Assembly (NCBI GenBank): GCA_964601385.1
Contig: CAZRNJ010000002.1
Location: 1-38,005 of the forward strand
DNA: 38,005 bases
Direction of reading: 5' to 3'
DNA from: an uncultured Bacteroidales bacterium
Lineage (GTDB): Bacteria; Bacteroidota; Bacteroidia; Bacteroidales; JBBRXJ01
Below, in pieces: positions 9,307-37,815 of this stretch; within the stretch, counting starts at the first letter, position 1; each line of letters begins with the position of its first letter. Under the pieces are notes generated by a model, which ran no database searches, was not told the DNA's origin, and worked only from the letters and a program-made list of their open reading frames with translations. The position numbers were made by a program, and so were the translations under genes.

Positions 9307-10575
9307 TTATTTATTATCGAATGTTTCATTATATACAACTGTATTCTGGTTATTTCTAAATTCAACATTATCTACTATCCCATATCCGCTAAATTTTAAA
9401 TGAATACATTTGATACTGCCCAATGACTGCGTGTATCCGAGTTTATAAATCAGCGTTTCGTTGACATACAGTTTTGCTGTATTATCACTTACATCAAAAC
9501 GAATAGTATTCCACTTCATCAGATTATAAGCGAGCGACTGTAATTCATCATAACGGCCGTTGCGCACCGAATCACCGGCAAAAAATGATGTCATGCTGGA
9601 ACAGCCCGTATTAGCCAGTTTAAAACCCGCATCACTTTCAGTAGCCAGCAGTAACATCTCTAGAAAACTACAGTTATTCTGGTTAAACCGACGCCTGAGC
9701 AAAACATCAAAGCTAACAGAAAATTTACTGTCCGTAATATCAAAATCAGCAACATTTTTATATTCTATTTCGAAATCGCGAGTAGTATCAACCCCTGCAA
9801 TAGCAGCTTCGCTAGCCGATATATTCATAGAACTATCATTAATCAGTAATGCCTTATCTATTAAATAATACTCATTATTTTGAATTACACCGCCATCCCA
9901 TCCATCCGACAAAACCAATACTTTCTCATGCGCAATTGGTTTATTTTTATAAATGAGCAGTACGTTATAATAATACGAATTAAAATAGGTATGCGTAACA
10001 ATATTCTCCGTTTTGGGCAACAATTCGAGTTTTCCGGTAGGATTGTACAACTCCCCGAAATCTATATATATTTCATCACCATGCAAGCCACTGATATCAT
10101 AATGAAATGCTGCCGTATGAGGATGATAGCCGCTTAAATTACGACCACTGAAATAATATTCTTCGGGAAAGATACGATTGTAAAAAATTGTTCCCATCCA
10201 GATGATAAAAGCAATAATAACGAGCGTCCCTCCTGACAGAATAATAATTCTACGGCTGATTTTTGTTTTGGATGGATTTGTCTTATTAAATTTCTCTTTA
10301 AAAGCCGACCAGCTTTCGAATCCAAGATATTTTGCTAATGCATTTTTTGTCTCTATCTGAGGATTGAATTTTTCCTTATACGATTTATCCTGTCCTAACA
10401 AACGACGGATAGATGATACACTTAGACGAACACTTGTAGATTGGAATATATCATCACTTAACCGGGTAAAGTGATAATTCGTCCACTCCTCTTTTCTGCC
10501 CCATTGTACCTTATTTTCAATCTCCCGGATGCATTGGTCTAAATGCCTTACCTCATGCTCCATCTGTCCGCTCAT
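9307..10575 (-). CDS. single-pass membrane protein, paralog A (cytoplasmic HTH-like N-domain, TM, PKD-like and jelly-roll-like ectodomain)
   Basis: The start is moved to Met16 (MSGQMEHEV...) because a TATTTTTG -7 box lies inside the longer ORF. TM segment RRIIILSGGTLVIIAFIIWMGTIF. Clear homology to 11085-12374 (EWTN(Y/F)HF, LSVSS(I/V)RRL, I(Y/F)IDFGE, THTY..SYYY, VLSDGW, G(V/I)DTTR). Confidence 0.7.
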   Translation of the reverse strand: MSGQMEHEVRHLDQCIREIENKVQWGRKEEWTNYHFTRLSDDIFQSTSVRLSVSSIRRLLGQDKSYKEKFNPQIETKNALAKYLGFESWSAFKEKFNKTNPSKTKISRRIIILSGGTLVIIAFIIWMGTIFYNRIFPEEYYFSGRNLSGYHPHTAAFHYDISGLHGDEIYIDFGELYNPTGKLELLPKTENIVTHTYFNSYYYNVLLIYKNKPIAHEKVLVLSDGWDGGVIQNNEYYLIDKALLINDSSMNISASEAAIAGVDTTRDFEIEYKNVADFDITDSKFSVSFDVLLRRRFNQNNCSFLEMLLLATESDAGFKLANTGCSSMTSFFAGDSVRNGRYDELQSLAYNLMKWNTIRFDVSDNTAKLYVNETLIYKLGYTQSLGSIKCIHLKFSGYGIVDNVEFRNNQNTVVYNETFDNK

Positions 10576-10600
10576 AGCAATAAAAACTGTTTGATTTAAA

Positions 10601-10608
10601 CAAAAATA
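10601..10608 (-). promoter_or_regulatory. Bacteroidota -7 promoter box (TATTTTTG) for paralog A
   Basis: The reverse complement of CAAAAATA matches TAnnTTTG, 25 nt upstream of the ATG at 10575. The same extended TTATTTTTGTT context occurs upstream of paralog B. Confidence 0.5.
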
Positions 10609-10725
10609 ACCATTATTCATTTAATTACAATAGAATCGAAGCTTTTTGTTTATACAAATTCTGGTTATATACAAAATATGCATTAAAACAGAGCCATAAA
10701 CGTATCAATAAAAATAAACCCATTT

Positions 10726-10753
10726 TATGCAATAGAAGGGTTTCTATTGCATA
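10726..10753. other. perfect 12-bp inverted repeat (TATGCAATAGAA / TTCTATTGCATA) with a 4-nt centre
   Basis: Read directly from the sequence. On the minus strand it is followed about 10 nt later by TTTATTTTTATT. It could be a terminator closing the paralog B transcript or an operator upstream of paralog A. Confidence 0.45.
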
Positions 10754-10870
10754 GCGATTAAGAAAACACATACCATTTGGCTTGTCTATCAACAACCTAA
10801 ATTCGGAATTAACCCAAATAATCCAATAATTTACCATTTCTAATGGTTTCCATTGAATAAGTTGAGTTAA

Positions 10871-11096
10871 TTTGAACCCGAATTTTTCAGTTATAAAAAA
10901 TCAATTGAAAAACACTCTTGAAAATCTAATCGTTAGCTAATTGCTAACAATAAGGTTTTTAAGGCGGCATCGCTTTCGCGTAGCTTATGCCTCCGCTAAA
11001 GCTACGGCAAAATGCGGATAGCGGAGCAAAGGATTACCGCGTTAATGCAATAAAAATGTTGGTTTTATAGTTTACAAGGAATTTCTATTGCAAAAT
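10871..11096 (-). repeat. structured dispersed repeat, copy 1 (full length, about 226 nt)
   Basis: Aligns by eye along its length with 17353-17547, with one 32-nt indel. It shares an exact 22-mer with all copies (10965-10986). The hairpins are described in the findings. Confidence 0.85.
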
Positions 11097-12374
11097 CACG
11101 GTTGAATCAACATCATTGACAAAATCATTCAACACAACAGTCCTATTACTATCAGCAAGCATGATATGATCCAAGGTAACGGGTCCCAAACAATAAAAAT
11201 GAATACCATATAATTCTCCAGCAGTTTTATTATAAGAAAAATTATAAATTTCATTTCCATTAATGCTGATTTTTGTCTTCATGCGGCTCGTTTTAATCAT
11301 AATCTGAACAAATTGAAAAAAATTTTGACTAAAACCATTCAATTCATTGAATCTTCCTGATCGTTTAAAATCGCTGAAGCTAATGCTTGACAGGCCGGAG
11401 CATCCCGGCGTAGTAAAGGTTGCCTTTAAATTATTGTACTTGCCAAGTAAAAGCACGGTGGCATCATGACAACCGCGGCTAAAAGTTGTCCGGCTGATTT
11501 TCATCCTGAAACTTAATGTTAGGTCGTCACACAAAACACCAAATCTGCGGATGTTTTTAAACTCCGTATAATAACTCCGTGTGGTATCAATACCATAAAA
11601 CGCCAATAAACGGGGAGCAAGATACAGGCATGTCTGATGACCAGAATCCCTGTGAATACTATAATATTTGGGGGGGGTGCGAGTAAAAACCCCATATTCC
11701 CATCCATCCGATAAAACATGTACTTTATCCTGCCATAAGATTTTTTTTTCCATCATTATCTTCACAGGATAATAATACGATTGCATATAAGTATGCGTAA
11801 GCACATGGCCACGATCAGGCAGCATTAACCGGTGGGGATTATGAAAAAACTCGCCAAAATCAATAAAAATATCATTATTTCCCTTATTAGAAACACTATA
11901 TTGCGTAATAACCGTTAAGGGTGGGTTTCCCTGGCTCGGAAATAGTGTGGCTACAACTTTTACCGGTCGTAAAAAATAATTACCTGCAAAATATGCTGCA
12001 AATAATCCTCCAACAATAAACAATACTAACCCAATCCGCAAATGAACATACTGCTTAATAACATTCCGTAACCAATATTTATAAATCGTTTCACGTTGTT
12101 TCTCTTTATATCCCAACCAGGTGACACAACCCATAAAACGGGCTAGTGTGGCTCTGGTTTCAGGCTGAGGTATAAAATCTATCCCGCTTGTAAACAGTCG
12201 CCTTACAGATGATACACTCAATGTATCTCCTGTTTTTTCGGTAATCAACTGACTGAGTTTCTGAAAATGAAAATTTGTCCATTCGGTACTTGGCCCCCAA
12301 TGCATCTCCTGTTCTATGTCTGAAAGGCATTTGCGGATGTATAATTTTTCAGTATGAATGAAACGAAAAAACAT
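11085..12374 (-). CDS. single-pass membrane protein, paralog B (same architecture as 9307-10575)
   Basis: 429 aa. TM segment LRIGLVLFIVGGLFAAYFAG. Homology blocks with paralog A are listed above. The last codons and the TAG stop lie inside repeat copy 1. Confidence 0.7.
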   Translation of the reverse strand: MFFRFIHTEKLYIRKCLSDIEQEMHWGPSTEWTNFHFQKLSQLITEKTGDTLSVSSVRRLFTSGIDFIPQPETRATLARFMGCVTWLGYKEKQRETIYKYWLRNVIKQYVHLRIGLVLFIVGGLFAAYFAGNYFLRPVKVVATLFPSQGNPPLTVITQYSVSNKGNNDIFIDFGEFFHNPHRLMLPDRGHVLTHTYMQSYYYPVKIMMEKKILWQDKVHVLSDGWEYGVFTRTPPKYYSIHRDSGHQTCLYLAPRLLAFYGIDTTRSYYTEFKNIRRFGVLCDDLTLSFRMKISRTTFSRGCHDATVLLLGKYNNLKATFTTPGCSGLSSISFSDFKRSGRFNELNGFSQNFFQFVQIMIKTSRMKTKISINGNEIYNFSYNKTAGELYGIHFYCLGPVTLDHIMLADSNRTVVLNDFVNDVDSTVILQ

Positions 12375-12390: not shown

Positions 12391-12754
12391 ATGATTTATC
12401 TTTATAACTCTAATAATTACTTCAATTATGCGCATTACCATCCTGTTGCTTTTCGTAATCTTTCTTAACGCTCCTTACGCCGTCCGATGAGTTGAGATTG
12501 ATTTGAAATATTTTAATCCTGACAGCATTCCGAAAAAAGCCGGTGAACAGGTTTTACCCGGAATATTGCAGTTGGAAAACTGCAAACAGTTCAACCAGTT
12601 TTTCCCGTTGAAGGTACCCGGTAACCAATTCCTTATATATCATCAGATTATTACCAGAATCAGTAAAAATTCTCAAATTATCTATAAATTAAAGAAATAA
12701 ATATTTTTTTGCCTCGTTTAAACTTTTTTAATTCTTCGATGTCTAATACCGGTT

Positions 12755-15208
12755 ATGCAGAATTTGTTTATCTTTTTGTTTTTTAGCATTGGTATTACCA
12801 TCGCCACGGCGCAGCGTCAACCCGGGATGGCTATGGCTGATCTGCCCAAAGAAGGTATTGTTACGGGTAAAGTTCAGGACTCATTAACAGGACAGCACAT
12901 AGAATATGCAACCATTAGTTTATTCCGTAAAAAAGACACCTCCCTGATAACCGGCACCATCACCGACTCGCTGGGGCTATTTCGGCTTGAAGGCCTTCCG
13001 TGTGGTAATTTCTTTATTGAAACCAGCTTTATTGGTTTTGCACATCAACGCACCCCGGCTTTTATGCTTACTCCAAAACAAAAAATCAAAGATATTGGTG
13101 TTATACGTTTGGTTTCTGCAGCAACGCTCACCGGCGAAGTGGAAATTACTGCTCAGCGGCCCAGAATTGAATTCAAACTCGATAAAAAAGTTATTAATGT
13201 CAGTCAGGACATATCCTCCGCAGGCGGCACGGCAGTGAATGTGCTTGAAAATACCCCATCGGTCGAAACCGATATCGAGGGCAATGTTACGCTGCGCGGA
13301 AGCACAAACTTTAAAGTTCTGGTTGATGGAAAGCCAACAATGCTCAAAGGAGCCGAGGCGCTCCGCCAGATCCCGGCCAACACCATCGAAACCATCGAGA
13401 TTATCACTAATCCATCGGCTAAATATGACCCCGACGGCCTGGCAGGTATTATTAATGTAGTTCTGAAAAAAAATAAAACCAGCGGCATAAGCGGAATGAT
13501 CAGTGGATCAGCCAGTAGCGATATGGGCTACAATAGTAGCGTGCTTGTTAACTATCGCACGACCAAATCCAATTTCTTCACAGGCGCAAGTATGAACTCT
13601 ATTAATCATTATGTTTTCCGCGATATCACCCGTGAAATCTATTCTGCCGATACCACCTATCTGCACTCATTGGGCAAAGGAAATATGGAACAGGATAATT
13701 ATAATTTCAAAGCCGGGATGGATTGGTTTCTGACACCCAAAACCTCCTTGTCATTATCGGGCGAGGCAGGCGAATCAAACGGCGGACGTATCTCTGCTCT
13801 CAATTTTTATGAACACGCGTCCATGGGTGATGAAAAATATTATATACGCGAGGGAACCAGGCGTGACCAGGGGCCGGAGTTTAGCAGTACTCTGTCGATC
13901 GATCATACATTTTCAGGCGAACAGAATAAAATCGAAGCTATGGTATTCTATTCGGCCAGACCTGAGACTGAAAACGCAGTCAATACCGAATATATTGCAG
14001 ATGCTTACTGGAATAAAATTGCATTCAGCGATTATCAGCAGCGCTCATTCAGTAATTCCGACAACTATAACTGGCGGATAAAAACCGACTACATAAGGAT
14101 ATTTTCGGAAGACAGCAAATTTGAGGCCGGCGCACAAAGTGATTTTGAAAGAGACAACGGAAATTACCGGTTCGAAAAAAACGACCTTATCACCGGCAAC
14201 TGGGTCAACGATCCGCTGCAAACCAACATGCTCGACTTCCGTCGCGACATCCATGCTGTATACTCGGTGTACTCCAATAAACTGGCCGGAATAGGATTTC
14301 AGGCCGGTCTACGGGGCGAGTTAACCGACATGCTGATTAACCAGCGCACATCAGAACAAACTTTCCGCACCTATACTTTTGATTATTTCCCTGCCCTGCA
14401 CATCTCACGACAGCTTCCGGCCGAACAGCAATTGATGGCCAGCTATAGCCGGCGTATCAACCGTCCCGGAGGCCATGAACTGAACCCCTTCCGGTCGTAT
14501 ATGGACCGTCAGACATTCCGTGTAGGCAATCCGGCGCTCGAATCCGAATACATCAACTCGTACGAACTCGGTTACCAGAAGCGGCTCGGTATATCATTCG
14601 TTTCATTAGAAGGTTATTACCGCCAGACATTGAATAAACTCGAACGCATTTCCCGCTTACTGAACGACTCAACGACATACTACACATATGACAATATCTC
14701 AAGCGACTACTCAACGGGCATTGAACTTACAGCCAATATCATCTTTTCGCACTGGTGGAATGTATTTGCAACCGGCACTATGTACAACTACCGGATCAAA
14801 GGCACTCTGGATACTGATGGTGATGTGAACCAGACCACGAATACCTGGAATATGCGGTTTGCCAATAATTTCCGCTTAAAATGGAACACCCGGATACAGC
14901 TTACAGGCTTCTACTCGGCCCCGACAATTACAGCGCAGGGAGAGCGGGGCGAATTTCTGATGACCGGAATTGGTGTTCGCCATGATTTCCGGAAAGGAAA
15001 ATTCTCGGCAACATTCAATGTTAACGATATTTTCCAATCTATGAAAATTGATATTGCCTCCCGGACAACAAACCTCTACAGCCACTTTATTCTGACACAC
15101 GAAGCGCCAATCTTCAGCTTGTCGCTCACTTACCGCATCAACAATTACAAGGAACAAAAAGGTGAAAACGGCACAACACGTCCGGATATGAACAGTGGCG
15201 ACTTCTGA
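12755..15208 (+). CDS. TonB-dependent-receptor-like outer membrane beta-barrel protein (CarboxypepD_reg-like N-domain, plug, barrel)
   Basis: 817 aa. Signal peptide, then GKVQDSLTGQHIEYATISLF...GTITDSLGLF (carboxypeptidase-regulatory-like fold), plug-like VLENTPSVETDIEGNVTLRG, and a long beta-rich region ending in a C-terminal Phe. Confidence 0.8.
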   Translation: MQNLFIFLFFSIGITIATAQRQPGMAMADLPKEGIVTGKVQDSLTGQHIEYATISLFRKKDTSLITGTITDSLGLFRLEGLPCGNFFIETSFIGFAHQRTPAFMLTPKQKIKDIGVIRLVSAATLTGEVEITAQRPRIEFKLDKKVINVSQDISSAGGTAVNVLENTPSVETDIEGNVTLRGSTNFKVLVDGKPTMLKGAEALRQIPANTIETIEIITNPSAKYDPDGLAGIINVVLKKNKTSGISGMISGSASSDMGYNSSVLVNYRTTKSNFFTGASMNSINHYVFRDITREIYSADTTYLHSLGKGNMEQDNYNFKAGMDWFLTPKTSLSLSGEAGESNGGRISALNFYEHASMGDEKYYIREGTRRDQGPEFSSTLSIDHTFSGEQNKIEAMVFYSARPETENAVNTEYIADAYWNKIAFSDYQQRSFSNSDNYNWRIKTDYIRIFSEDSKFEAGAQSDFERDNGNYRFEKNDLITGNWVNDPLQTNMLDFRRDIHAVYSVYSNKLAGIGFQAGLRGELTDMLINQRTSEQTFRTYTFDYFPALHISRQLPAEQQLMASYSRRINRPGGHELNPFRSYMDRQTFRVGNPALESEYINSYELGYQKRLGISFVSLEGYYRQTLNKLERISRLLNDSTTYYTYDNISSDYSTGIELTANIIFSHWWNVFATGTMYNYRIKGTLDTDGDVNQTTNTWNMRFANNFRLKWNTRIQLTGFYSAPTITAQGERGEFLMTGIGVRHDFRKGKFSATFNVNDIFQSMKIDIASRTTNLYSHFILTHEAPIFSLSLTYRINNYKEQKGENGTTRPDMNSGDF

Positions 15209-15480: not shown

Positions 15481-16083
15481 ATGAAAGACCTAGTTCTCAG
15501 TAATGCGTTAGTTAAGACAACTAACAGATTACGCAGCAATGCCCCTCTCCAGGGCGGCTTAATCATTGGTAACAGAATTCCGAAAGAATACTTTGTCACC
15601 AAGGGAACAGGAGAAAGTGAAATCACAGTGCATGCAGGGTCCTATCACCTTGCATTGAAGTCCGCCGGGATAGAAATGGCAAACATCATTACCTACTCGT
15701 CTATACTTCCCGGTATCGCCAAAAAAATCCACAAACCAAAAGAGATCATTCACGGAGCAGTTATGGAAACCATTATGGCGGTTGCTAACGGCCATAAAGG
15801 CGAACTGGTATCTGCCGGTATTATCAATGGCTGGCTGATTGACCGTGAAACAGGCCACCGCTACGGAGGTCTGGTTTGTGAACACAATGGCAATTACACC
15901 CTCAAACAGCTCGAAAATAAACTCGAAGCGAGTTTGAATGAGCTTTACATTAACGGGTTCGAAGAACGCTATGCGCTTCAAAACATCGAAATGCACACCT
16001 CATCGTTAACGCCCCGGAAAGAGTACGGTTCAGCCATCGTGGCGCTGTGCTTCACTAGTTATCTGTATCCCATCCTGGCCTGA
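15481..16083 (+). CDS. pdaD: pyruvoyl-dependent arginine decarboxylase
   Basis: 200 aa. IPKEYFVTKGTGES, HAGSYHLALKSAGIEMANIITYSSILP (self-cleavage serine region). The size and C-terminal region fit the PdaD family. Confidence 0.8.
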   Translation: MKDLVLSNALVKTTNRLRSNAPLQGGLIIGNRIPKEYFVTKGTGESEITVHAGSYHLALKSAGIEMANIITYSSILPGIAKKIHKPKEIIHGAVMETIMAVANGHKGELVSAGIINGWLIDRETGHRYGGLVCEHNGNYTLKQLENKLEASLNELYINGFEERYALQNIEMHTSSLTPRKEYGSAIVALCFTSYLYPILA

Positions 16084-16106
16084 TAACTTAACAACCACAA
16101 AATACC

Positions 16107-16139
16107 AAACTCCTTCTTCCCCGGAAGGAGTTTTTTTTT
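16107..16139 (+). terminator. rho-independent terminator after pdaD
   Basis: Stem AAACTCCTTC / GAAGGAGTTT with loop TTCCCCG, followed by a T run extending the 3' arm. Confidence 0.85.
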
Positions 16140-16218
16140 CTATATCATCATGTTTGAAATATTAAATCTTTTGTTAATATCTTTTAGTCCATGCTTTCTG
16201 ATTTTTTCTTTATTCTCT

Positions 16219-16226
16219 TAAGTTTG
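16219..16226 (+). promoter_or_regulatory. -7 promoter box TAAGTTTG upstream of the DHS-like gene
   Basis: Exact TAnnTTTG match, 37 nt upstream of the ATG at 16264. Confidence 0.5.
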
Positions 16227-16263
16227 CACCTGCAAATGATAAACATTAAAAACCATCACTGCA

Positions 16264-17286
16264 ATGAAAAAGAGAGAACTGCTCAGCAAAGAAATCGAAC
16301 ATATTGACATCAAATCGTTCGATTCAACACCCATTATCAATGCTATGCGAAAAATGTCGTTCTCATCACGCGAAACAGCAAATGCTGCCGATATTCTTCT
16401 GAAAATGATTAAAGACAAAGAATGTACCAATATACTCACCCTTGCCGGCAGTACCAGCGCGGGTGGCTGTATGCAGGTGTACGTTGACATGGTTAAGCAT
16501 AACATGATTGACGTGGTTGTTGCAACCGGGGCATCCATTATTGATATGGACTTTTTTGAAGCCATCGGGTTTAAACATTTTATCGGTCGCCGTGATATAT
16601 CGGACAAACGGTTGCGCGAATTTTACATTGACCGTATCTACGATACATTTATTGATGAAGACGAATTGCAGGAATGCGACAATACTATTAAAAAAATTGC
16701 CGATAAACTTAAACCCCGCCCCTATTCGTCACGTGAATTTATTAAACAGCTTGGAGCGTATCTGGTAAAAAATTCTGTAAAAAAAGATTCTCTCATTCAG
16801 GTTGCGTACGAAAAAAACGTTCCGATATTCTGTCCTGCCTTCTCTGACAGCAGCGCAGGATTTGGGCTTGTGAAGCACCAATGGGAAAATCCCGACAAAC
16901 ATGTTTCAATTGACTCGGTAAAAGATTTCCTCGAACTAACTATGATTAAAATGGCAGCAGGAACCTCAGGGCTCTTTATGATTGGCGGCGGTGTGCCTAA
17001 AAACTTTGCCCAGGACACCGTTGTCTGTGCTGAAATTCTTGGCAAAGCAGTGCCCATGCATAAATACGCCGTCCAAATCACTGTGGCTGATGTGCGTGAT
17101 GGCGCCTGCTCCTCATCTACACTGCAGGAAGCCAGCTCATGGGGCAAAGTAGATACCCTCTACGAACAAATGGTTTTTGCCGAAGCCACAACCGTTCTGC
17201 CGCTTATTACCAGTTTCCTTTATCATTCGAAAGCATGGAAAAAACGCGAAGCGCGAAACTGGACAAAGTTGCTCGATAAAAACTAA
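16264..17286 (+). CDS. deoxyhypusine synthase family protein (bacterial DHS-like / homospermidine-synthase-like)
   Basis: 340 aa. LTLAGSTSAGG, VDVVVATGASIIDMD and GGGVPKNF blocks are typical of the DHS NAD-binding fold. Confidence 0.8.
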   Translation: MKKRELLSKEIEHIDIKSFDSTPIINAMRKMSFSSRETANAADILLKMIKDKECTNILTLAGSTSAGGCMQVYVDMVKHNMIDVVVATGASIIDMDFFEAIGFKHFIGRRDISDKRLREFYIDRIYDTFIDEDELQECDNTIKKIADKLKPRPYSSREFIKQLGAYLVKNSVKKDSLIQVAYEKNVPIFCPAFSDSSAGFGLVKHQWENPDKHVSIDSVKDFLELTMIKMAAGTSGLFMIGGGVPKNFAQDTVVCAEILGKAVPMHKYAVQITVADVRDGACSSSTLQEASSWGKVDTLYEQMVFAEATTVLPLITSFLYHSKAWKKREARNWTKLLDKN

Positions 17287-17352: not shown

Positions 17353-17547
17353 ATTGAACCCTGATTTCTCAGTTGATAAATTTTAACTGAAAAAATCTCT
17401 TGAAAATCTAATCGTTAGCTGATTACTAACAATAAGATTTTCTAAGACGGCATCGCTTTCGCGTAGCTTTAGCGGAACAAAGGGTTGCTGCATTAATGAT
17501 ATAGAAATGTGGGTTTTATAGTATATAGGGAATTTCCATTGCAAAAT
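17353..17547 (-). repeat. structured dispersed repeat, copy 2 (about 195 nt, 32-nt deletion variant)
   Basis: Aligns with copy 1. Exact 22-mer at 17448-17469. Second hairpin at 17414-17430. It lies 83 nt beyond the stop of the minus-strand glycoside hydrolase gene. Confidence 0.85.
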
Positions 17548-17630
17548 ACAGAATAAACAATATAATTCGACAACATTGCCATAATCGCCATAACTGAATC
17601 ATTATTGAAAACGTTGATAATGCTTGTCTT

Positions 17631-37461: not shown

Positions 37462-37531
37462 CCTTTTAATCCTATATTTTATGAAAAAAACTGTTTTACT
37501 CTTATACCATTTGGAATTATAATTTAGTCCA

Positions 37532-37665
37532 AATGTCATCCGTATAATGCTTTACTTTGCTGCCCGCGTGTCGCTGAAGCTTCAGCGGGGGCACAAGCTA
37601 CGCGAAAGCGATGCCGATGTAACAAATGTTTAGTCCATTTACATTGGACAATTACATTTGTCCAA
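37532..37665 (+). repeat. structured dispersed repeat, copy 3 (diverged, opposite genomic orientation to copies 1 and 2)
   Basis: Exact 22-mer AAGCTACGCGAAAGCGATGCCG at 37595-37616. Upstream palindrome CGCTGAAGCTTCAGCG at 37572-37587. Downstream hairpin TTGGACA-N8-TGTCCAA at 37644-37665. The 5' boundary is uncertain (possibly about 37505). Confidence 0.7.
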
Positions 37666-37668
37666 TCG

Positions 37669-37815
37669 GTATTATTTGCTGTTTTGACATTATCTGCGTA
37701 GGGACAAACAAACGCCGACATTGATGGCAATGTTTACCCCACAGTTACCATTGGGTGCCGAATCGGGATGGCCGCCAACCTTTCTGATACCCATACCCCT
37801 GACAGTACCGAATAG
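37669..37815 (+). pseudogene. decayed fragment of a FISUMP (TIGR02145, Fibrobacter succinogenes major paralogous domain) lipoprotein gene
   Basis: One frame reads VLFAVLTLSA*GQTNADIDGNVYPTVTIGCRIGMAANLSDTHTPDSTE*. DIDGNVYxTVxIG..(W)MA(E)NL is the FISUMP signature. It has an in-frame TAG, no in-frame start, and is truncated after about 35 residues. Confidence 0.5.

Follow-up and report, generated by a model that had tools for sequence, protein, structure and literature searches.

What kind of element places the same 22-nt string, AAGCTACGCGAAAGCGATGCCG, at three sites among unrelated genes is the question raised by a 38,005-nucleotide stretch of DNA from an uncultured Bacteroidales bacterium (GenBank assembly GCA_964601385.1, contig CAZRNJ010000002.1, positions 1 to 38,005; hereafter the window). 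The string is exact at 10965-10986 (minus strand), 17448-17469 (minus strand) and 37595-37616 (plus strand), as a preliminary description of the locus had it, and none of 100 dinucleotide-preserving shuffles held any match, with up to three mismatches allowed. That description saw a structured non-coding repeat with a GAAA-capped hairpin, and named as candidates a small RNA (sRNA) or terminator module carried in 3' untranslated regions (UTRs), or an element resembling the miniature inverted-repeat transposable elements (MITEs). We consider it likely that all three copies are MITEs, that is, non-autonomous DNA transposons, of an uncultured Bacteroidota species and that they share an internal unit. 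Taken copy by copy, the MITE reading holds for the first two and very probably for copy 3 as well.

Copies 1 and 2 are about 83% identical outside a 32-nt indel, in two blocks of 88 and 78 nt, and copy 3 has only some 80 nt around the core in common with them. The stem-loops reported earlier are all present as written, namely GGCAT/ATGCC in copy 1, GGCAC/ATGCC in copy 3 and the CGC-GAAA-GCG hairpin; GTTAGC-AATTA-GCTAAC, GTTAGT-AATCA-GCTAAC and TTGGACA-N8-TGTCCAA in copies 1, 2 and 3, respectively; and CTCCGCTA...TAGCGGAG in copy 1 with CGCTGA-AGCT-TCAGCG in copy 3. The copies as such are real, but their limits had to be redrawn to 10877-11101, 17359-17552 and 37504-37672. Copies 1 and 2 belong to one class, type I, of about 195-260 bp, which occurs in several assemblies and is represented in the window by the following features.

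10877-11101, minus strand: copy 1, a complete type I MITE of 225 bp (nhmmer with the type I profile, E = 5.9e-49).
11088-11101, minus strand: 5' terminal inverted repeat (TIR) of copy 1, CCGTGATTTTGCAA.
10877-10890, minus strand: 3' TIR of copy 1, CTGAAAAATTCGGG.
11046-11093, 10921-10959 and 10883-10912, minus strand: the 5' hairpin, hairpin H3 and hairpin H4 of copy 1.
11102-11106, minus strand: 5' target-site duplication of copy 1, TTCAA in the minus-strand reading, inside the 3' end of an open reading frame (ORF) of 429 amino acids (aa).
10872-10876, minus strand: 3' target-site duplication of copy 1, TTCAA.
10965-10986, minus strand: invariant 22-mer of copy 1, which forms the 3' part of the internal unit; the 5' part, CCTTTGCTCCGCTA, is at 11019-11032.
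10987-11018, minus strand: optional 32-nt insertion of copy 1, a diverged inverted duplicate of the unit.
17359-17552, minus strand: copy 2, a type I MITE of 194 bp in the short form (nhmmer, E = 8e-47).
17539-17552 and 17359-17372, minus strand: the decayed 5' TIR of copy 2, TCTGTATTTTGCAA, and its 3' TIR.
17448-17469, minus strand: core 22-mer of copy 2.
12558-12626, plus strand: orphan type I 5' module with a TIR-like CCGGAATATTGCAG and two hairpins (nhmmer, E = 1.5e-8, profile positions 1-70).

Both the alignment and a TIR scan place at the ends of type I imperfect TIRs of about 14 bp with a central mismatch, CCSGGATTTTKCAG...CTGAAAAATCSGGG. Read on the sense strand, the 5' end, CCSGGATTTTGCA, is followed by one of two alternative 5' hairpin modules, then by the conserved block GGTAAYCCTTTGCTCnGCTG-AAGCTACGCGAAAGCGATGCCG, then by the long hairpin H3, which lies 3' of the core and has kept its pairing while its apical sequence is wholly different between subfamilies, and finally by a second hairpin, H4, TTTTTCAGTTGAG...CAACTGAAAAA, and the 3' end AAATCSGGG. 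The orphan 5' module is cut off after GGTAACC, with neither core nor 3' half, and lies about 130 nt upstream of a TonB-dependent receptor gene at 12755.

The evidence for mobility lies just outside these ends, where flanking 5-mers form direct repeats that are identical within a copy in nine of ten two-ended copies and take five different sequences. The pairs are given below as 5' flank / 3' flank, with loci other than the window carrying the prefix L.

Window copy 1: TTCAA / TTCAA.
L015, L019a and L022: TTTAT / TTTAT.
L021 and L024a: TTAAA / TTAAA.
L024b and L032: TTTAA / TTTAA.
L027: TTAAT / TTAAT.
Window copy 2: TTTAT / TTCAA, a mismatch in a copy whose 5' TIR is decayed too.

When the 3' flanks were permuted among the type I copies, which keeps flank composition, nine or more matches had p = 5.7e-5 and the mean was 2.3. 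Because the repeats are direct and not inverted, they cannot belong to a helix; they are target-site duplications, and it is the combination of TIRs with copy-specific 5-bp duplications that makes type I a MITE. L024a has lost everything 3' of its core, yet keeps the terminal CCGGG and a matching TTAAA, and L015 is a diverged type I element with TTTAT duplications. Type I inserts at AT-rich TTNAW sites, where it duplicates 5 bp of the target, and this implies that it is mobilised in trans by a DDE-type transposase whose cuts are staggered by 5 bp.

The elements are much more alike than the DNA on either side of them. Over 128-186 nt, copy 3 shares 93.5-95% identity with L018 and L033, and over 202 nt copy 2 shares 86% with L022, in each case between flanks without similarity. 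Further copies, 76-95% identical, lie among unrelated flanks on other contigs from the same metagenomes. The window species itself has three full and two partial copies in about 50 kb. Thus the suggestion of a MITE-like element is upheld for copies 1 and 2 by TIRs, by 5-bp duplications that co-vary and by modular, flank-independent dispersal. With the 19-mer GCTACGCGAAAGCGATGCC, a search through one genome for each GTDB species found 17 loci, of which 12 were rejected as chance matches in GC-rich or coding DNA; L002 (Muribaculaceae, Bacteroidota) was a chance coding match. Four of the 17 are genuine relatives, namely L007 (a metagenome-assembled genome (MAG) of Bacteroidaceae), L009 (Marinilabilia) and L012 and L015 (Bacteroidales MAGs), and in all four the match extends upstream to CTTTGCTCnGCTGAAGCTACGCGAAAGCGATGCC, as in copy 2, with the 32-nt segment missing. 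In metagenomes, a 21-mer found 16 loci, 14 real and two by chance, including five stretches each from Ga0209381 and Ga0101944, whose samples also hold the window's own species.

Copy 3 carries the same unit in a different setting, type II, with these parts.

37504-37672, plus strand: copy 3, a type II backbone carrying the same unit.
37504-37515 and 37661-37672, plus strand: TIRs of copy 3, ATACCATTTGGA and TCCAATCGGTAT, matching at 10 of 12 positions.
37549-37562, plus strand: 5' part of the unit.
37563-37594, plus strand: palindromic insertion.
37595-37616, plus strand: the 22-mer.
37622-37661, plus strand: 3' hairpin module.

Four elements (copy 3, L018, L028 and L033) share the ends ATACCATTTGGA...TCCAATCGGTAT and have 5' and 3' modules of their own, distinct from those of type I, so copy 3 would be a second, unrelated MITE backbone with the same unit. 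The type II 3' module is also found as a core-less element of about 64 nt (L021 904-973 and 1320-1389; L023 374-443) and as solo fragments (L024 9506-9545; L027 3440-3485), and the 5' module stands alone at L024 2661-2715; core-less copies exist of both types (L018 2710-2823; L021 904-973). The unit lies within still other backbones, namely inverted-repeat-bounded elements with ends GTCTATAAA...TTTATAGAC in L009 and L020, CCACGA...TCGTGG in L007 and GCAAAAGAT...ATCTTTTGC in L012.

Smaller repeats were noticed close to copy 1. A lone type II-like terminus with one mismatch, ATACCATTTGGC, lies at 10770-10781 (plus strand), between copy 1 and the start of a 437-aa gene, and may be an element remnant or due to chance (with up to two mismatches, 10 sites were observed against 6 expected). 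Another short repeat consists of the hairpin GCAATAGAAAcccTTCTATTGC with ATAAAATGGGTTTATTTTT after it and occurs at 10726-10766, at L032:964-1004 and at about 2455-2490 of L041, a downstream extension of the window; the window site is 92.7% identical to that of L032 and resembles the 5' hairpin of the subtype to which copies 1 and 2 belong. With one mismatch allowed, TGCAATAGAAA occurs seven times in the window against 1.5 expected.

A different account of the same hairpins is that the repeat is a structured non-coding RNA (ncRNA) read from the strand of the GAAA loop, as a 3'-UTR sRNA, an mRNA-stabilising or terminator module or a cis-regulatory leader, and we judge this improbable. In its favour, copy 1 folds more stably than its shuffles, and more so on the proposed strand (z = -3.9) than on the other (z = -2.7), and RNAalifold on nine type I copies shows H3 and H4 kept with 11 pairs that have double changes and with two conserved G-U positions on the proposed strand that would be C-A on the other. 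MITEs of the Correia and BOX kinds are co-transcribed and affect mRNA. The same holds for BrickBuilt-type MITEs (PMC4596501). However, self-templated repair of mobile palindromes gives double changes without selection on an RNA, and conserved hairpins are compatible with a transcribed element and with mobile palindromic DNA alike. Within the unit the pairs are invariant and so give no covariation signal, and L024b has an uncompensated loss of one pair in the GAAA stem. Between the sense and antisense strands the minimum free energy differs by up to 8 kcal/mol, in a direction that varies by copy, and a strand call from folding energies was dropped because the bias is inconsistent. A terminator-like hairpin with a T-run is weak in copy 1 (three GC pairs) and absent from copy 2, and in copy 3 it is the type II hairpin. 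Lastly, an RNA gene would leave the flanking 5-bp duplications unexplained.

Searches for known RNAs agree with the remark in the preliminary description that no named family was recognised. With cmscan, Rfam 15 had no match in the window at gathering scores, and around copy 1, at a permissive E of up to 10, there were chance-level hits only, to microRNA and small nucleolar RNA (snoRNA) models at 13-18 bits (35-90 being required) with E > 1; cmscan at the element in L007, L009, L012, L015, L021, L027 and L033 found nothing. ARAGORN found no tRNA or tmRNA in the window, and an origin from either was set aside. A hammerhead-like reading, CUGAAG...GAAA, fails in that position 9 is C and stem II is impossible, and the window copies have CUAAAG. 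A coding explanation fares no better. As the preliminary description stated, no ORF is common to the copies; the elements are 139-260 bp long and, because the 32-nt indel and a 32-nt tandem duplication described below are not multiples of three, no reading frame is preserved. This, together with a downstream sequence that varies by backbone, disposes of the frame FAQLKLRESDA and of a mini-ORF ATG-CCG-NNN-stop.

The position of the copies with respect to genes had also been remarked on, each being said to begin 0-90 nt after the stop codon of a co-oriented gene. Copy 1 does not begin after a stop codon; that of the 429-aa ORF (11085-11087) lies inside it, and its first 17 nt are the last five codons and the stop of that ORF. 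Copy 2 lies between convergent genes, and copy 3 between pssA and a co-oriented aminotransferase gene that is seen in L041. Across the family the contexts are convergent, divergent or tandem, and among 15 copies with a callable upstream gene this gene is co-oriented in eight and divergent in seven. Because the orientation is mixed, a place just downstream of a gene does not characterise the family. The copies between tandem genes are co-oriented with them in three of three cases (p = 0.125), which favours an RNA. In sum, a structured RNA or terminator in 3' UTRs is unsupported, given that there is no Rfam match, that orientation is mixed, that terminators are weak and that folding shows no bias. 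A false lead is thereby removed: the "GAAA-hairpin RNA" is an internal part of a transposable element, and it is by coincidence that it follows genes.

That interior, the internal unit, can be written YTTTGCTCnGCTGAAGCTACGCGAAAGCGATGCC; it is about 32-34 nt long and contains the 22-mer as its 3' part. It is present in three states. It is single in copy 2, L015, L022, L032 and L019b and in the distant L007, L009, L012 and L020, and it is tandemly duplicated with a 32-nt period in L027, L028 and L033, where units follow one another head to tail without a spacer, GCGAAAGCGATGC abutting TTTGCTCnGCTGAAGCTACGCGAAAGCGATGCC (L027:3285-3350, L028:520-570 and L033:2733-2790). In the third state an insertion of 32-34 nt, made of adjacent unit sequence in palindromised or inverted form, separates GCTG from AAGCTACG. 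In copy 1 this insertion contains CGTAGCTTTAGCGGAG, the reverse complement of CTCCGCTAAAGCTACG; in copy 3, L018, L021 and L033 it is the near-perfect palindrome GTGYCGCTGAAGCTTCAGCGGAGGCAC; and L019a has a double insertion. The outer stem GGCAT...ATGCC is found only in copies with the optional insertion. The preliminary description was right that copy 2 lacks the counterpart of 10987-11018, as the alignment confirms, but the difference is more readily explained by a gain in copies 1 and 3 than by a loss in copy 2. Among type I copies short ones outnumber long ones, and of five distant elements four (L007, L009, L012 and L020) have no other form; L025 has the insert. The unit may therefore be pictured as a variable cassette, single, in tandem, or with an inverted partial duplicate that forms a local hairpin, and the inverted partial duplicates of copies 1 and 3 might have arisen by template switching at a quasi-palindrome. 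Beside the unit of L009 there is a GC-rich insertion of about 100 nt with nested hairpins, which its relative L020 lacks.

Conservation of the unit raises a further possibility, one that would complement the MITE reading, namely that it is a functional cis-element, a protein-binding site or regulatory DNA motif, carried by several MITE backbones. We regard this as a tentative possibility. The unit is found in at least five backbones (type I, type II, L009/L020, L007 and L012) from different families of Bacteroidales and Marinilabiliales, and no closing helix around it common to all backbones was seen, which favours a sequence motif over a structure. Part of it, GCGAAAGCGATGCCG, is invariant in nine of nine aligned type I copies, whose TIRs and hairpins vary. 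These include L024b, which was found by flank similarity and not by the core; its variant unit, GCTGTAGCTATGCAATAGCGAAAGCGATGCC, has the third-pair C of the CGC/GCG stem replaced without compensation and GCGAAAGCGATGCCG intact, which appears to point to conservation of sequence rather than of structure. The unit also contains two 11-nt direct half-repeats, GCTGAAGCTAC and GCGAAAGCGAT, identical at 7 of 11 positions. On the other hand, the distant relatives were retrieved with an exact core, the 19-mer or the 21-mer, so that their core identity arises partly by construction, and the independent evidence for conservation consists only of about 15 extra nt upstream of the core together with L024b. 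Core-less copies of both types show that the elements can persist without the unit, and there is no known candidate for a protein that binds it. Our best guess is that the unit may be a sequence-specific protein-binding module, or else a cassette trapped and spread by the elements in the manner of BrickBuilt or BOX; that it is a selected cassette, a binding site or short RNA motif, captured independently by or moving between at least five unrelated Bacteroidales and Marinilabiliales backbones, we think doubtful.

Palindromic units in inverted arrangements also recall the repetitive extragenic palindromes (REPs), and an element akin to REPs or bacterial interspersed mosaic elements (BIMEs), spread by a REP-associated tyrosine transposase (RAYT; HUH type, IS200/IS605-like) that recognises a hairpin and GTAG, would account for several features. 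The likeness to REP, BIME and the REP doublets known as REPINs lies in short, GC-rich imperfect palindromes in AT-richer intergenic DNA, in nested palindromes, in inverted unit doublets and in mosaic arrangements, and the reverse complement of the core reads CGCTTTCGC-GTAG-C, which puts GTAG beside the CGC/GCG hairpin on the opposite strand. Such elements nevertheless seem a very unlikely explanation here. REPs are without TIRs or target duplications and usually number hundreds of copies, whereas type I has both TIRs and target-site duplications and the copy number is apparently modest, with one exact core per GTDB genome in four genomes. To our knowledge, HUH/RAYT elements have neither target-site duplications nor TIRs. 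Moreover, the units here are embedded in composite elements of about 200 bp and do not stand alone, and no RAYT gene was seen in the fetched loci, which were not systematically searched for one.

Closer parallels to these MITEs exist among modular intergenic repeats. BOX of Streptococcus pneumoniae (boxA, a variable boxB and boxC) and the Correia elements (NEMIS) of Neisseria are modular, hairpin-rich intergenic repeats of about 100-350 bp, transcribed together with the genes beside them; the Correia type has TIRs, duplicates its target and binds a host factor, integration host factor (IHF), at a central site. The elements described here share the modular, hairpin-rich build, and their unit resembles boxB; unlike BOX and Correia they belong to another phylum and have unrelated sequences, and type I duplicates 5 bp where Correia duplicates TA. 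BrickBuilt of Porphyromonas gingivalis is MITE-like and strictly intergenic (Klein et al. 2015, PMC4596501), and in its authors' view a MITE "trapped" the repeat and is spreading it (PMC4596501). Like BrickBuilt, our elements have a Bacteroidota host, leader and tail modules with short TIRs, and partial copies with the leader or the tail only, and copy number of the internal unit varies in both, although the unit is 23 nt there and about 32 nt here. There is no sequence similarity between the two. BrickBuilt TIRs, GAGACCTTTGCA, match IS5-family ISPg elements, in contrast to the CC... ends and 5-bp duplication found here; BrickBuilt has up to about 23 tandem units, against one or two direct units and inverted partial units; and it is restricted to a species, while the present unit is common to several bacterial families. 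A literature search with the core string found nothing, and the family is apparently undescribed, though apparently an ordinary kind of genomic parasite.

Which enzyme might mobilise type I can be approached through its ends. The IS1380 family is common in Bacteroides (the IS1186/IS942 group). The comparison that follows concerns its termini and duplications. Termini of IS1380-family insertion sequences (ISs) begin with CC, and the elements duplicate 5 bp, often at AT-rich targets; ISEcp1, whose left inverted repeat (IRL) is CCTAGATTCTACGT, likewise makes 5-bp direct repeats (PMC6061673; PMC2887853). Of 14 positions in the type I TIR, CCGGGATTTTGCAG, eight agree with that IRL, and, because CC termini and the 5-bp duplication are found in both, we suggest that the mobilising enzyme may be IS1380-like. 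Other systems that duplicate 5 bp, namely Tn3-derived inverted-repeat miniature elements (TIMEs), Tn7, Mu, Tn402 types and some IS3, IS481 and IS21 members, have termini (GGGG..., TG...) that misfit. The att core of CTnDOT, GTANNTTTGC, was compared with GTAACCCTTTGC and rejected for its wrong spacing. A phage or plasmid origin was also rejected, as blastn of copies 1 and 3 against PLSDB found no match, and viral contigs scanned with the 22-mer, with the TIR plus 5' hairpin and with a degenerate core gave none, or one chance coding match (L043). About 7.5 kb past the 3' end of the window, L041:2493-2994 (reverse strand) holds a 116-aa C-terminal remnant of an IS3-family transposase (rve_3, E = 4e-20) and, 45 nt on, a type I 3' half ending in AAAAATCAGGG followed directly by TTAAA. 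It looks as though an IS had entered the unit of a MITE and a deletion had followed. The remnant, the only one of a transposase nearby, was rejected as autonomous partner, since it does not fit the CC termini and seems to be a separate insertion into a MITE.

The surroundings of the three copies are those of an ordinary chromosome, with genes for Kup, PheT, YchF, IspD, PorV, pssA, a TonB-dependent receptor, AmtB and deoxyhypusine synthase, and neighbours of the copies that are unrelated to one another; no transposase lies within the window. Copy 1 sits between tandem paralogs, 30% identical and both on the minus strand (9307-10620, 437 aa, and 11085-12374, 429 aa), in which no Pfam domain was found. 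A search of 5.8 billion sequences with the latter at E <= 1e-20 returned three proteins, the two paralogs and one 37% identical to it, and the family is essentially an orphan. On the minus strand, 11085-11106, made up of the duplicated TTCAA and the start of the element, encodes the ending ...DSTVILQ, and the paralog at 9307-10620 ends in ...NETFDNK. On the plus strand, 15481-17286 comprises a gene for a pyruvoyl-dependent arginine decarboxylase and, immediately downstream, one of the deoxyhypusine-synthase family (E = 3e-92), probably a pair of polyamine (homospermidine-type) genes unrelated to the repeat. An independent contig, L042 (Logan SRR5580902), ends 34 nt inside copy 3, which fits a repeat-induced assembly break, and other contigs of the window species also start or stop within a few kb of element copies.

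Several observations weigh against reading all three copies as MITEs. The 5-mers flanking copy 2 differ (TTTAT against TTCAA), no target-site duplication was recognised at copy 3 when type II flanks were examined, and none that convinces was found at L018, L028 or L033 either. About 350 kb of fetched DNA yielded no autonomous element with matching ends and no IS1380-type transposase, and a full-length IS with type I ends was found neither there nor in plasmid or viral collections. No empty site provides a contrast: five independent assemblies of the species, 99.2-99.7% identical, all carry copy 2 unchanged, and a comparison through homologues of the 429-aa paralog and of pssA was abandoned, as the closest, 37% and 58% identical, are too distant. 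The exact 19-mer is single-copy in the four GTDB genomes, the compensatory changes that keep H3 and H4 paired would fit an RNA too, and the unit has changed less than the TIRs, an unusual state for the interior of a neutral MITE and a hint of an extra function.

This MITE family breaks assemblies and has rewritten the C-terminus of one gene. Its only unusual feature is a unit that stays almost unchanged across MITE backbones and bacterial families. If that unit is a selected cassette, the MITEs would be vehicles that place a common cis-element beside many unrelated genes, and, should its conservation survive an unbiased census, the Bacteroidota would have a cis-element spread by MITEs and, with it, a handle on the protein that recognises it.

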